A stretch of DNA of 64,000 bases. It comes from Arenicellales bacterium. GTDB lineage: Bacteria > Pseudomonadota > Gammaproteobacteria > Arenicellales > JAJDZL01. The DNA lies in the NCBI GenBank assembly GCA_963664525.1, contig OY761535.1, forward strand, positions 975,314 through 1,039,313, in the 5' to 3' direction. Both the position numbers and the translations under genes were made by a program. The notes beneath the pieces were generated by a model that was not told the DNA's origin, did no database searches, and worked only from the letters and a program-made list of their open reading frames with translations. This document shows, piece after piece, positions 3,787 to 9,278 of this stretch; position 1 is the first letter of the stretch, and the number at the start of each line of letters is the position of its first letter.

Positions 3787-5076
3787 ATGTCTGAATTTGA
3801 ACGGGAAGAAAAAAGTACTTTGCTGAAACGCCTCGGTGAGGTACCAAAGAATCTAATTGTTTTAACTGGTCCACGCCAATGCGGTAAAACAACGGTATTA
3901 CTACAGGCACTAAAGTCGGGAACAGCAGGATATCTTTATGTGGACCTTGACCGTGTAGGTGTATCCCATAACGATACGATTTTCAGTTCTGATCCGAACT
4001 TCACGATTAGTATCCCACAAGAAATCGCAACACCTCGGGTTAATCGACTCGATGCGGAGTGGCTTGTTTGGGTGTGGCAGGCGGCGAGAATTCAAGTTAA
4101 ACAGTCAGATTCTGGTTACATACTTGCACTAGACGAAATTCAGAAAATACCGAATTGGTCGCAAATCGTAAAAGGTTTGTGGGATGCTGACCGAATTGAA
4201 GGTCGACAAATGCACGTAGTGCTTTCAGGATCTGCACCACTGCTTGTGCAAAAAGGATTGACCGAGAGTCTTGCTGGACGGTTTGAAACGATTCGACTCA
4301 ATCATTGGTCTTTCGCGGAAATGGCTGAAACATTTGATTTCAATCTGGACAAGTTTATTTATTTTGGTGGTTATCCTGGGTCGGCATCACTAATCGACGA
4401 CGAAGATCGCTGGCGTGATTACATTCTCGACGCGCTGGTACAGACAAGCATAGAGCGAGATATATTGGCGATACAACGTATCGATAAACCAATCCTGATG
4501 AAACGTTTATTCGAGCTAGCTTCGAATTACTCAGGACAGGAACTTGCCTTCAACAAAATGCTTGGCCAACTTCATGACGTTGGCAATACCACCACGTTGG
4601 CGCGTTACCTTGATCTGCTGTCACAGGTGAAGCTTATCAGTGGGCTTTCCAAGTATTCCCAGCAGCGTATGCGACGTGGTTCCACTCCCAAACTGATCGT
4701 ACATAACACGGCTTTGATGTCTGCCGGTTCCGGCTATACGTACACAGAAGCCCGGGCTGATCGCACATTTTGGGGGCGGCTTGTTGAAAGCGCTGTAGGA
4801 GCGCATCTATTAAATTCTCTTAGTCCTCGTGCCGAACTTTTGTACTGGCGTCACAATAATGTCGAAGTGGACTTTGTTATCACTCGCGCCAATCACGTCT
4901 CTGTAATTGAGGTGAAAAGTGGTGTCAAGAGAATATCCACGAAAGGTTTTGAAAAATTCGAAGAGAACTACTCGAGTAATGCGCGCTCGATCAAACGAAT
5001 CGAAGTCCATGGGAGTGGAACTGAGCTCGCGGATTTTCTTGCAACCCCAGCATCGCAATGGTTAGAAAATCTCTAA
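3787..5076 (+). CDS. AAA+ ATPase of the COG1373 type (AAA_14 N-terminal domain + DUF4143 restriction-endonuclease-like C-terminal domain)
   Basis: Walker A GPRQCGKTT (K34), Walker B ILALDEIQ, LAGRF, and C-terminal EVDFVITRANHVSVIEVKSG (D...E-x-K). Confidence 0.85.
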   Translation: MSEFEREEKSTLLKRLGEVPKNLIVLTGPRQCGKTTVLLQALKSGTAGYLYVDLDRVGVSHNDTIFSSDPNFTISIPQEIATPRVNRLDAEWLVWVWQAARIQVKQSDSGYILALDEIQKIPNWSQIVKGLWDADRIEGRQMHVVLSGSAPLLVQKGLTESLAGRFETIRLNHWSFAEMAETFDFNLDKFIYFGGYPGSASLIDDEDRWRDYILDALVQTSIERDILAIQRIDKPILMKRLFELASNYSGQELAFNKMLGQLHDVGNTTTLARYLDLLSQVKLISGLSKYSQQRMRRGSTPKLIVHNTALMSAGSGYTYTEARADRTFWGRLVESAVGAHLLNSLSPRAELLYWRHNNVEVDFVITRANHVSVIEVKSGVKRISTKGFEKFEENYSSNARSIKRIEVHGSGTELADFLATPASQWLENL

Positions 5077-8000: not shown

Positions 8001-9278
8001 GCCGATGTTTTATTCAAATATGCAAGCGCCTGTTTTCGTAGCTGTAAAGAAGGTATCAATGGTTTGTATGAACTCGCATATTCGAAAGACCACAAAGAAT
8101 TAGCACGGCTCGTTTCGTTGCGATTACTGAGAGTATTTCCTTTAAGATGTCGACAGTCGCAACTTCAAGACTTGAGAAATTTGCTGTCTTCGGCATTGAA
8201 TCTAAACAGCGAAAAGGACCAGTTAGTCGAGTTGATCGAAAGAAAGCTGAGCCGTAAGAGCATGGATTCGAGTCAGCGCGTATATTGGCTAGTTGCCGGA
8301 TTGCTAATTTCATCCGACAAGTATGTAGAAAAATTAGACGTTCACATTACCAACAACAAAAATGGACTTCTAGACCTGGAACGTTGCCTAGTCGATTTTA
8401 TCTATAGGTCTAAATTTATTGAGCATCTCAACATCGAAGGGACCAAGCTACTGATTCGATATGTTGGCTCGATTTGTCATACAAACATTGAAACCACGGT
8501 CAAAGATGCTGCAGACTGTGTACGAGAAATGATTGAACGATTGGCCTCGAATTCCTCTGTAAATGCTACCACAGCGCTTCAAGAACTGGCTGATGACGAT
8601 AACCTGATTGAGTGGAGATCAAATTTGTTGGGTGCAGCAATCCAGCAAGAAAGAAAAAGGCGAGAAAGTGAATACCACCATTCAAGCACTGAACAAGTTA
8701 TTGAAACTTTGCAAAATTGCAAACCAGCAAATCCTGCCGACTTAGCTGCTTTAGTTGAGGATAAGCTGCGACAAATCGCAAATGAAATTCGAAATGGATC
8801 TGCATCTGGTTGGCGACAGTATTGGAACGTCGATCACCGCAATCGTCCAGAAAAGCCAAAACACGAAAACGCTTGTCGGGACAGGCTGATGTGGGATTTA
8901 CAGCAATTTCTATGTTCATTTGGTATTGATGTACAACCGGAAGGAACGTACGCTGAAGATAAACGCGCAGATATACGTGTTTTTTACAACAATTACAACG
9001 TGCCTGTCGAGCTTAAGAAAAGCAGCCATCGAGATGTTTGGAGTGCAATTCTCAATCAATTGGTCATGAATTACACTCGTGACCCGGGTACGGATGGATA
9101 CGGTATATACGTTGTATTCTGGTTCGGTTTTTCGAATTCTCCGAAGCCCACGCCAGGGATTAAGGGATTACCTAAAAGTTCTGAGGAGTTTGAGAGAATT
9201 CTCAAGGAAAGCTTACCCATGGAAAAGCAACACAAAATATCAGTGAGTGTAATTGATGTTTCTCTGCCTGATCGCTAA
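5058..9278 (+). CDS. 1406-aa STAND/NACHT-like P-loop NTPase with a long helical middle region and a C-terminal PD-(D/E)xK nuclease-like domain
   Basis: Walker A GAPGMGKT (G77-T84, nt 5286-5309) and Walker B TLFLDALDE (D121-E125), followed by FRLKPLTKKQ. C-terminal ADIRV (D1305) ... VELKK (E1318, K1320). The ATG at 5058 overlaps the upstream gene by 19 nt, and no other in-frame ATG precedes the P-loop. Confidence 0.7.
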   Translation: MVRKSLNYFAPRTCTITSCDKDSSNADHLFQAKYREILNSDVVHTSSISTRAKKDTFECKSFSLENLREIDAYVLLGAPGMGKTEAFKLEGNMPNCRYITVRDFVTLHQEPESATTTLFLDALDEKRIGQMDGRTALDEVRYKLQELGFPRFRLSCREVDWFGASDNEHLKTVSPNKKLSVFRLKPLTKKQVCKILNKNFGISNPTIFVALAKNYGVDELLYNPQMLEMLANAVSQSSNKTFPRTRFQTFELACRNLLKEHNQEHQVVNRSVPFDSKSLLETAGKLCAIQILSGVQGYALSSEMCTSDYPDLEQIINEDGSEIFRIVHSKLFHTPRENCIASIHRQVAEFLAALYLGKLINDGLPLSRVLSLMTGFDDLVVSELRGLSAWLTLHCASRRKEIMARDPFGVLLYGDAKVFSNEEKVFLWRLLRQNSEKDPRYLRIFGNEVQIGDILTEEVVNEIREYFRSSSISNAKPSFDRTVIDILRYGTPVSGVSEILLTILKDNSISPKIRLNAIDAFVHQCADTAQAHAELKDLLDKIYVDKNVDPDNELIDRILNELYPGSLKASEILKYFRLPSKEILSIDYEFFWGDYVPQNSTANQLAYLLNQVEKKNEELKSSPQFGAQWTSIMRHLSRVWLRHYLDKLHGELDRYQLFEWLGFASGVNDWHDDDLQYEEDSKTIASWIERRPELHLWLLGRGLENCIDARKCSDSNPFSQCINTQWKRTFGAAKPKEFGLWCVSKALEIHDEDAKIWLLHKAVGWIDHYDRIQEVFTNDVTKLLERNPDLKRMFSERRSQIELVRKKSEEHSYQQENKQRQKEWQEYLKPHETALQENRIEMQLLSQLALVYLGGYLDVDGRDPISRLSNLVGDDNKLLNSILEGLRESINRDDVPSDDEVIELHCESKRHLLVFPILAGLNKRTSERPDYVIGLKEKKMRLAVALYFTEPYWRTSKVIDQNVKQNSQWFPGLLRNYPDLVADVLFKYASACFRSCKEGINGLYELAYSKDHKELARLVSLRLLRVFPLRCRQSQLQDLRNLLSSALNLNSEKDQLVELIERKLSRKSMDSSQRVYWLVAGLLISSDKYVEKLDVHITNNKNGLLDLERCLVDFIYRSKFIEHLNIEGTKLLIRYVGSICHTNIETTVKDAADCVREMIERLASNSSVNATTALQELADDDNLIEWRSNLLGAAIQQERKRRESEYHHSSTEQVIETLQNCKPANPADLAALVEDKLRQIANEIRNGSASGWRQYWNVDHRNRPEKPKHENACRDRLMWDLQQFLCSFGIDVQPEGTYAEDKRADIRVFYNNYNVPVELKKSSHRDVWSAILNQLVMNYTRDPGTDGYGIYVVFWFGFSNSPKPTPGIKGLPKSSEEFERILKESLPMEKQHKISVSVIDVSLPDR

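Follow-up and report, generated by a model that had tools for sequence, protein, structure and literature searches.

Bacterial NACHT (bNACHT) and Avs proteins, such as bNACHT25 with its Mrr-like restriction endonuclease and Avs1-4, combine a NACHT/STAND nucleoside triphosphatase (NTPase) with a repeat sensor and a nuclease effector, and the papers on them that were consulted treat these systems as single proteins. Avs10 (Erebus/Hypnos/bNACHT64) senses major capsid proteins (Lee et al. 2026, 10.64898/2026.01.04.697583), and placement of the effector at the C-terminus, after the repeats, is a described minority architecture among bacterial NACHT proteins (bioRxiv 10.1101/2022.07.19.500537). PDC-S01, an ATPase fused to a PD-(D/E)xK domain, is a single-gene defense candidate without validation that reportedly ranks fourth among the commonest defense systems and candidates across prokaryotes (PMC12988326). 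Here we describe a locus that brings relatives of both together. It lies in a stretch of 64,000 nucleotides (nt) from an Arenicellales bacterium (contig OY761535.1), called the window below, and consists of a gene for an AAA_14 + DUF4143 ATPase (gene 1) whose 3′ end overlaps a gene for a long NACHT protein of the EruA family (gene 2); the two genes are referred to together as the cassette. With moderate confidence, we read the cassette as a two-gene anti-phage operon built around a sensor-effector that resembles the NOD-like receptors (NLRs), with a co-inherited helper or regulator. A first-pass annotation made from the sequence alone had placed both open reading frames (ORFs) and their 19-nt overlap exactly where we find them and had proposed a candidate undescribed system. 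That proposal was partly right: the parts are known from phage defense and the pair is a new variation on them, and the features for which we found no description are the near-obligate coupling of the two genes, their co-evolution, and their promoter. The cassette is laid out as follows.

3787-5076, plus strand: gene 1, 429 amino acids (aa)
5058-9278, plus strand: gene 2, 1406 aa
5058-5076, plus strand: overlap of 19 nt, shared by the end of gene 1 and the beginning of gene 2

Gene 2 aligns in one colinear stretch, from residue 63 to residue 1402, with positions 17-1318 of the 1318-position NCBIfam model NF058535, "NACHT domain-containing antiphage protein EruA" (E 6.9e-270, 899.1 bits). All 18 gene 2 homologues tested match EruA as well, with a best E among them of 7.1e-287. 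The paired homologue from Thauera linaloolentis (L071; neighbor loci carry L-numbers) reaches 1020.7 bits and so exceeds the equivalog cutoff of the model, and the other paired homologues whose EruA scores were read fall at 844-908 bits. On sequence grounds, gene 2 is an EruA-family NACHT protein, a sister-clade member that scores below the equivalog cutoff. It shares with EruA full-length colinear homology, an approximately equal length, the NACHT module, and a conserved C-terminal D...ExK region. It differs in belonging to a large sister clade with a coupled upstream ATPase and a palindromic promoter, whereas the best-scoring EruA seen, a Bradyrhizobium plasmid protein of 1189.6 bits that lies above the cutoff, stands alone, without gene 1 and without the palindrome. 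HyoA (NCBIfam NF058534) has a related NACHT region, but its similarity to gene 2 is partial and much weaker (residues 172-828, E 3.3e-56, 190.7 bits against a cutoff of 1200 bits), and it is a separate family. EruA and HyoA presumably correspond to the Erebus and Hypnos systems, respectively; Erebus was reportedly described by van den Berg and colleagues in 2024, and its probable match with EruA is suggested by the name.

The Pfam scan of the window proteins returned zero matches for gene 2, and precomputed annotation places its homologues in the recent Pfam family PF28130/DUF8371. The gene 2 family is large: at least 1267 members were found in the protein collection, and species-representative genomes contain at least 532 loci, in taxa that include Gammaproteobacteria, Alphaproteobacteria, Latescibacterota, Binatia, Acidobacteria, Gemmatimonadota, Chloroflexota, Nitrospirales, and Spirochaetia. 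A search at the DNA level gave no homologue in E. coli. Viral contigs yielded no more than two distant relatives, both N-terminal, and the phage collection a single partial match, and because of this near-absence a phage origin of the cassette was rejected.

Gene 1 matches the PADLOC PDC-S01 model PDLC04791 end to end (residues 4-426 to profile positions 2-394 of 395, E 6.8e-150), has the same domain makeup, and by its sequence is a member of that clade. Its match and that of gene 2 to EruA overturn the earlier statement that the pair corresponds to no named defense system: each gene is already catalogued, and only the pair as a unit is uncatalogued. The AAA_14 + DUF4143 architecture, in turn, had been called correctly, with AAA_14 at residues 22-179 (E 1.8e-24) and DUF4143 at residues 223-379 (E 1e-26) in Pfam. 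The motifs named for it, GPRQCGKTT (which holds K34), ILALDEIQ, and EVDFV...IEVKSG, are present in gene 1 and invariant in 18 homologues. Two of them lie at the following positions.

3868-3894, plus strand: gene 1 Walker A, G28-PRQCGKT-T36 with K34, invariant in the 18 homologues
4864-4917, plus strand: gene 1 PD-(D/E)xK motif, E360-V-D362 ... E375-V-K377, invariant in the 18 homologues

The full set of invariant gene 1 residues is G28, P29, R30, Q31, G33, K34, T35, T36, D116, E360, D362, E375, and K377. Weak matches to the Pfam families PDDEXK_10, NERD, and RE_EcoO109I and to the CARF_PDDEXK models of PADLOC cover its C-terminal part. Between the ATPase and the nuclease motif, gene 1 has a stretch that reads, to our eye, like a winged helix; a weak match to the Sta1 winged helix in one distant DUF4143 protein is the sole computed hint of DNA binding. 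Sequence searches of the PDB with profiles of the gene 1 and gene 2 proteins gave P-loop noise only, and gene 1, used as the query in a scan of metagenomes, found one locus.

The coupling of the two genes is the strongest departure from what has been catalogued. Among the 81 gene 2 loci fetched out of at least 532, a gene 1 homologue is found immediately upstream and on the same strand in 78, spread over more than 10 phyla, so that gene 2 homologues do regularly co-occur with a DUF4143 ATPase gene. Looked up in reverse, five of six gene 1 relatives have a DUF8371 gene downstream. PDC-S01 is catalogued as a single-gene candidate, a trait that fails in the clade of gene 1, where the ATPase gene nearly always opens an operon and precedes the gene for a NACHT protein of 1400 aa. 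The stop and start codons overlap by 4 nt (ATGA type) or by 1 nt in nearly all 78 paired loci. The window reads CTA at the -4 codon, and its sole usable gene 2 start is the ATG at -19 (5058). As first noted, this is the only in-frame ATG before the P-loop of gene 2 (M81 lies inside the P-loop), and reading by eye revealed no sequence like a Shine-Dalgarno (SD) motif upstream of it. Where homologues have a second in-frame ATG at -19, it arises as a side effect of the E/Q-W codons that are conserved in gene 1.

The two genes have also changed together. Gene 1 is the better conserved of the two across paired loci (50-55% identity, compared to 33-40% for gene 2), and the pairwise distances of the two proteins are tightly correlated (Mantel r = 0.875, a value attained by 0 of 999 permutations). 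On a neighbor-joining tree the paired gene 2 copies form one large clade, and the plasmid-borne stand-alone genes fall outside it. The suggestion that the genes form one operon with translational coupling agrees with the conservation of the overlap, and the pair forms a widely conserved operon whose translation is probably coupled. The literature searched yielded no description of coupling between the PDC-S01 clade and an EruA-like NACHT protein, nor of the co-evolution of gene 1 and gene 2 or of a conserved palindromic promoter of the leaderless type such as the one discussed below.

An alignment of gene 2 with the 18 homologues (38-58% identity) and AlphaFold2 (AF2) models searched with Foldseek divide the protein into three regions.

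5235-6317, plus strand: NACHT module of gene 2, approximately residues 60-420, from invariant columns, the AF2 model, and Foldseek
6318-8852, plus strand: putative sensor region of gene 2, approximately residues 421-1265, with the sensor role assigned by analogy with Avs and bNACHT proteins
8853-9275, plus strand: C-terminal PD-(D/E)xK nuclease-like domain of gene 2, with the invariant residues E1270, E1295, D1305, E1318, and K1320

The NACHT module has a Walker A motif, G77-A-P-G-M-G-K83-T84, in which G77, P79, G80, G82, and K83 are invariant, and an extended Walker B motif, LFLDALDE (residues 118-125; family consensus LFIDGLDE), in which D121, D124, and E125 are invariant. The arginine of SCR157 is sensor-1-like and likewise invariant, as are H344, F350, L351, and A352 in H344-RQVAEFLAA (EFLAA at residues 349-353), which we take to be the NLR winged-helix signature. 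With the AF2 model of residues 1-620 (predicted local distance difference test score, pLDDT, 77), Foldseek retrieved NLRC4, NOD2, NLRP3, NLRP5, and NAIP5 at E values of 3e-7 to 4e-4 and a probability of 1.0. The NLR-like fold, LFLDALDE, the invariant R157, and H344...EFLAA together indicate that gene 2 is a NACHT-clade STAND NTPase, which makes the earlier STAND call correct and more specific. Like the animal NLRs (NLRC4, NOD2, NLRP3, NAIP5), it is predicted to have the NBD-HD-WHD fold with a DGLDE-type Walker B and the winged-helix His/EFLAA; unlike them, with which it shares about 12% identity, it would carry helical repeats in place of LRRs, and a nuclease-type domain takes the place of the CARD or PYD signaling domains. 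Residues 421-620 are all-helical in the model, and no Pfam family, repeat families included, matches residues 421-1265.

At the other end of gene 2, the AF2 model of residues 1150-1406 (pLDDT 83.8) shows an alpha-beta-beta-beta-alpha-beta core made of a helix (1270-1288), three strands (1291-1294, 1306-1310, and 1313-1321), a second helix (1330-1339), and a final strand (1349-1355). D1305 directly precedes the second strand of the model, E1318 and K1320 sit on the third, and all three residues are invariant in the 18 homologues. The top Foldseek matches of this domain are weak and mostly PD-(D/E)xK nucleases (Can2, 6sce, PspGI, Hjc, and Cdn1). As a reading of the model, a PD-(D/E)xK nuclease domain at the C-terminus of gene 2 is well supported by topology and invariant residues. 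The first-pass annotation had picked out K83, D124/E125, and D1305/E1318/K1320 as the P-loop and nuclease residues of gene 2 and had seen PD-(D/E)xK motifs in both proteins, and the alignments agree with it; structure prediction delivers the NTPase fold that it implied and, for the nuclease, the topology without a significant match. A profile-profile comparison of the nuclease regions of gene 1 and gene 2 gave a probability of 0.2, with the D...ExK motifs nevertheless aligned, and since it is not significant, a recent duplication as the source of the two regions is unsupported. An N-terminal "PRTC" strand of gene 2 was considered as an interface specific to the pair and dropped because several stand-alone relatives have a related R-rich strand too.

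The layout of gene 2 had been set apart from Avs and bNACHT proteins on account of its C-terminal effector. The effector is indeed at the extreme C-terminus, but the contrast was overstated, since this is the known minority layout mentioned above. A clearer difference is the dedicated partner ATPase gene, which goes unmentioned in the bNACHT and Avs texts compared. PARIS (AriA/AriB), Septu (PtuA/PtuB), and Gabija resemble the cassette in that a tightly linked gene pair encodes ATPase and nuclease functions. As had been proposed, they are otherwise unlike it: neither gene has a match to these three systems in PADLOC at E <= 1, the families are unrelated, and here a P-loop and a PD-(D/E)xK motif are present in both proteins, one of which is NLR-like.

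Immediately upstream of gene 1 lies the strong palindrome that had been noted at first reading, together with a promoter that it overlaps.

3742-3779, no strand: perfect palindrome with 17-bp arms TTGTAATCTATTGAGTA / TACTCAATAGATTACAA and a 4-nt loop, the proposed operator over the promoter
3752-3780, plus strand: sigma-70-type promoter in the palindrome, with -35 TTGAGT at 3752-3757, a 17-nt spacer, and -10 TACAAT at 3775-3780

The arms (3742-3758 and 3763-3779) are 100% complementary and end 7 nt 5′ of the gene 1 ATG. The core pattern of the palindrome occurs once in the window, compared to 0.02 occurrences expected by chance, and the core TTGAGTA-N(0-8)-TACTCAA is found upstream of gene 1 in 67 of 80 loci. 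The distance from the end of the core to the start codon is 17 nt in 47 of these 67 loci and 16-19 nt in 63. The consensus is aaTTAcgcTaTTGAGTAAatTTACTCAAtAg.GTAAt.T. In the window, the promoter has 9 of 12 consensus matches, with the left core of the palindrome serving as the -35 hexamer. Across the 50 loci with canonical spacing, numbered relative to the A of the ATG, T-12 is present in 50, A-11 in 49, and T-7 in 42, and an SD-like tetramer is present in one. This T-12/A-11/T-7 pattern and the near absence of SD motifs make the A at 3787, the first letter of the ATG, the likely transcription start, and the mRNA would be leaderless. RNA polymerase has no sequence requirement in the promoter spacer. 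The right core, which falls in the spacer, is conserved all the same, which implies a second binding factor, probably a dimeric one. None of the stand-alone gene 2 loci checked has the palindrome, and it is kept with gene 1 in L088, a locus without gene 2, so the element is tied to gene 1. The palindrome was also considered as an RNA hairpin or terminator and rejected in this role, since it is upstream of the likely transcription start, its sequence is conserved beyond pairing, and no T-run follows it.

Several observations on this element stand by themselves. Seven loci (L033, L036, L054, L055, L058, L068, and L070) have TTGACTA, a better -35, as the left core and still have TACTCAA as the right core; the symmetry is broken on the promoter side only. 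Three others (L014, L019, and L021) have a second, tandem full palindrome about 80-100 nt upstream of gene 1, beyond the canonical one. L010 contains two extra operator cores (ATTGAGTAAAATTACTCAAT) at 13280-13297 and 17577-17594; on the minus strand, these stand upstream of a NYN-domain ORF (12542-13405) and of an ORF of 187 aa that has no Pfam match (16972-17532), with a P22-coat-like gene (18064-19737) nearby. The extra copies point to a small regulon or to leftovers of related cassettes. In the window, a second promoter-like site (3657-3685; TTGACA, 17 nt, CACAAT; 10 of 12 matches) is located about 100 nt upstream of the palindrome, within the 518-nt AT-rich intergenic region.

The mechanism that we propose starts from the folds and motifs, the conservation of the operon, the co-evolution of its genes, and the geometry of the promoter, and its sense-oligomerize-cleave scheme follows the descriptions of bNACHT and Avs proteins, for which trigger-induced oligomerization and DNA cleavage would, by analogy, be the shared mode of action. 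A phage-derived trigger would bind the long helical region of gene 2; by analogy with the capsid sensing reported for Avs10, it may be the major capsid protein or another conserved structural protein. Nucleotide-dependent oligomerization of the NACHT module would follow, and the oligomer would bring together and activate the C-terminal PD-(D/E)xK nuclease domains. The activated nucleases would then cut DNA, by which the phage would be stopped and the cell possibly killed. Gene 1 is the co-inherited partner, presumably expressed from the same transcript by coupled translation. A dimeric protein encoded by the cassette would bind the palindrome, repress transcription, and thereby keep a potentially toxic nuclease at a low level; as this binder and most likely repressor we favor gene 1, through the stretch that separates its ATPase from its nuclease motif. 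Gene 1 may accordingly be an autoregulator, a helper, a second nuclease, or several of these, and it might interact physically with gene 2. A more specific version is that one PDC-S01 clade has become a dedicated helper of a bacterial NLR, which would both repress the operon through the palindrome and gate or co-activate the NACHT nuclease. This version we put forward only tentatively, as a possibility that we would not bet on at present.

The same two genes could also be independent single-gene defense systems, one EruA-like and one PDC-S01, that travel together as a minimal island under a shared promoter and do not interact. Each family does occur alone, PDC-S01 by its cataloguing and EruA-like genes on plasmids of Bradyrhizobium, Rhizobium, Agrobacterium, Ralstonia, Pantoea, Vibrio, and Paracoccus. 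Single members of the pair are found as well: L088 has a gene 1 homologue (6001-7287, 63% identical) with the palindromic promoter at its canonical 17-nt spacing and no gene 2 remnant, and L066, L074, and L080 have gene 2 without gene 1. The latter three copies nest inside the paired clade of the neighbor-joining tree, a position that suggests secondary loss of gene 1. Unrelated neighbors in a defense island, however, would shuffle much faster than is seen here, where adjacency in 78 of 81 loci extends over more than 10 phyla with order, strand, and the 1-4 nt overlap conserved. The tight co-evolution of the two proteins is likewise at odds with independence, and the single paired clade points to one ancient joining into an operon that was kept under selection. 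Independence without interaction is thus rather unlikely in our judgment. What the stand-alone genes do indicate is that gene 1 is not universally required, since EruA-like genes work or persist without it. On a Paracoccus sediminicola plasmid (L098), a stand-alone EruA-like gene is followed by a gene for a DUF4143 protein (8008-9129), the reverse of the order in the window; this protein has no obvious Walker A and is a distant relative of gene 1 (E 2e-12 over the C-terminal part).

The layout of the cassette also recalls a type II toxin-antitoxin module, with an upstream gene, a 4-nt overlap, and a palindromic operator across the promoter. Read in this way, gene 1 would be an autorepressing antidote or regulator and gene 2 a toxin, and the pair would be an addiction or selfish module that persists through post-segregational killing, or through spread driven by its own nuclease, instead of through phage defense. 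The bare two-gene insert in unrelated housekeeping contexts, with no integrase, fits this reading, as do HicAB and PIN genes among the neighbors. An essential antidote is hard to reconcile with the commonness of stand-alone relatives and with intact gene 2 copies where gene 1 is absent or split. In L002, from an Arenicellales metagenome-assembled genome, gene 1 (4220-8001) is interrupted by an insertion of 2.45 kb whose opposite strand encodes a Transposase_29 protein; what remains of gene 1 is an N-terminal fragment of 108 aa (4220-4546) and a C-terminal one of 328 aa (7015-8001), and gene 2 is intact. Since gene 2 remains intact where gene 1 has been lost or split, gene 1 is probably not a strict antidote. 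Its intact ATPase and nuclease motifs exceed the needs of a simple antitoxin, relatives of the NACHT-nuclease carry an anti-phage label, and no terminal repeats or target duplications were found, all of which make an addiction module doubtful. Less probable still, to the point of being very unlikely, is a role outside of defense, whether as a STAND regulator or as a housekeeping DNA-processing pair for repair or recombination. STAND NTPases do include the transcription regulators MalT and AfsR, the immediate neighbors of the pairs are mostly housekeeping genes, and phage and viral collections are practically devoid of the cassette. Gene 2, though, has no detected DNA-binding output domain and ends instead in a nuclease-type region with invariant catalytic residues, and its patchy distribution in differing contexts fits horizontal transfer across phyla. 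The anti-phage label of the family and a partial association with defense genes speak against such a role too. A minority of the immediate neighbors are defense genes (BrxL, type I methyltransferases, AriA, PtuB, mad2/3, AbiLi, HEC, and PDC candidates), and other loci have Eco57I, HicAB, TrlF/Ppl-like ATPase, SIR2, and RES genes nearby. Defense is the best reading, and the defensive role suggested at the outset is probably correct.

The two-gene anti-phage operon that we prefer has several findings to contend with. Gene 2 reaches 899 bits and EruA demands 1000, and the equation of EruA with Erebus is drawn from the similarity of their names and from both being NACHT anti-phage proteins. EruA-like genes persist without gene 1, as plasmid forms, as three nested losses, and beside one transposase-disrupted gene 1. 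The genes that flank the cassette in the window are mostly housekeeping genes, and the cassette sits outside any classic defense island. On the structural side, the AF2 models cover gene 2 residues 1-620 and 1150-1406, with 621-1149 falling between them, and the Foldseek matches of the nuclease domain in the PDB are not significant (best E 0.02). Finally, the proposed repressor role of gene 1 has to be set against a Pfam scan of this protein that detected no DNA-binding domain.

PDC-S01-type ATPase-nucleases are reportedly among the most abundant candidate defense genes of bacteria and archaea and have no validated function (PMC12988326). The locus gives one clade of them a testable context, a partnership with an NLR-like sensor-nuclease that looks obligate. 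NLR-related immunity in bacteria would gain a two-component form, and the helper reading, if true, would supply a bacterial counterpart of sensor/helper NLR pairs. A self-contained leaderless promoter, if confirmed, would explain how the cassette is expressed in more than 10 phyla, and the conserved palindromic promoter would amount to a compact, host-independent module for expression and regulation that is directly testable. There is a consequence for annotation as well: current models name some members of the gene 2 family and none of the gene 1 partners (NCBIfam has a model neither for gene 1 and its homologues nor for the Thauera partner), and the operon goes unrecognized as a unit.

As to its setting, the cassette had been described as an AT-rich insert between housekeeping genes. 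The housekeeping flanks are confirmed by the Pfam scan (an EF-G paralogue, a short-chain dehydrogenase/reductase (SDR), an alpha/beta hydrolase, DAHP synthase, and ATP sulfurylase), and the AT-richness is only mild, with a GC content of 42.5% in the cassette, 47.2% in the window, and about 36% in the two flanking intergenic regions. No direct or inverted repeats that would mark a mobile element were found at the cassette flanks, and without terminal repeats or target-site duplications around the cassette a discrete transposon is unsupported. An imperfect inverted repeat at 3335-3386 (21-nt arms, 81% complementary, 10-nt gap), shortly 3′ of the SDR stop codon, may be a terminator-like structure. 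An SDR gene is positioned upstream of the pair on the same strand, about 0.1-1.5 kb away, in the window and in about nine other loci, and an EF-G paralogue adjoins the cassette both in the window (389-2428, in the stretch 389-3268) and in L089/L090 (in the stretch 1-5624), with 53% identity between them. These recurrent neighbors could mark a hotspot of insertion, or they could coincide by chance, with shared ancestry swelling their number. The paralogue at 389-2428 is only 31% identical to the canonical EF-G of the window (51370-53469), which was itself recognized solely through its similarity to the paralogue. The region from 32078 to 53469 has the look of a core housekeeping segment: it contains five tRNA genes, and a 396-aa ORF (36782-37972) directly after three of them may be EF-Tu, a guess from size and position. 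By the same kind of guess, the ORFs at 41427-45920 and 45968-50254 have the size of the RNA polymerase beta and beta′ subunits.

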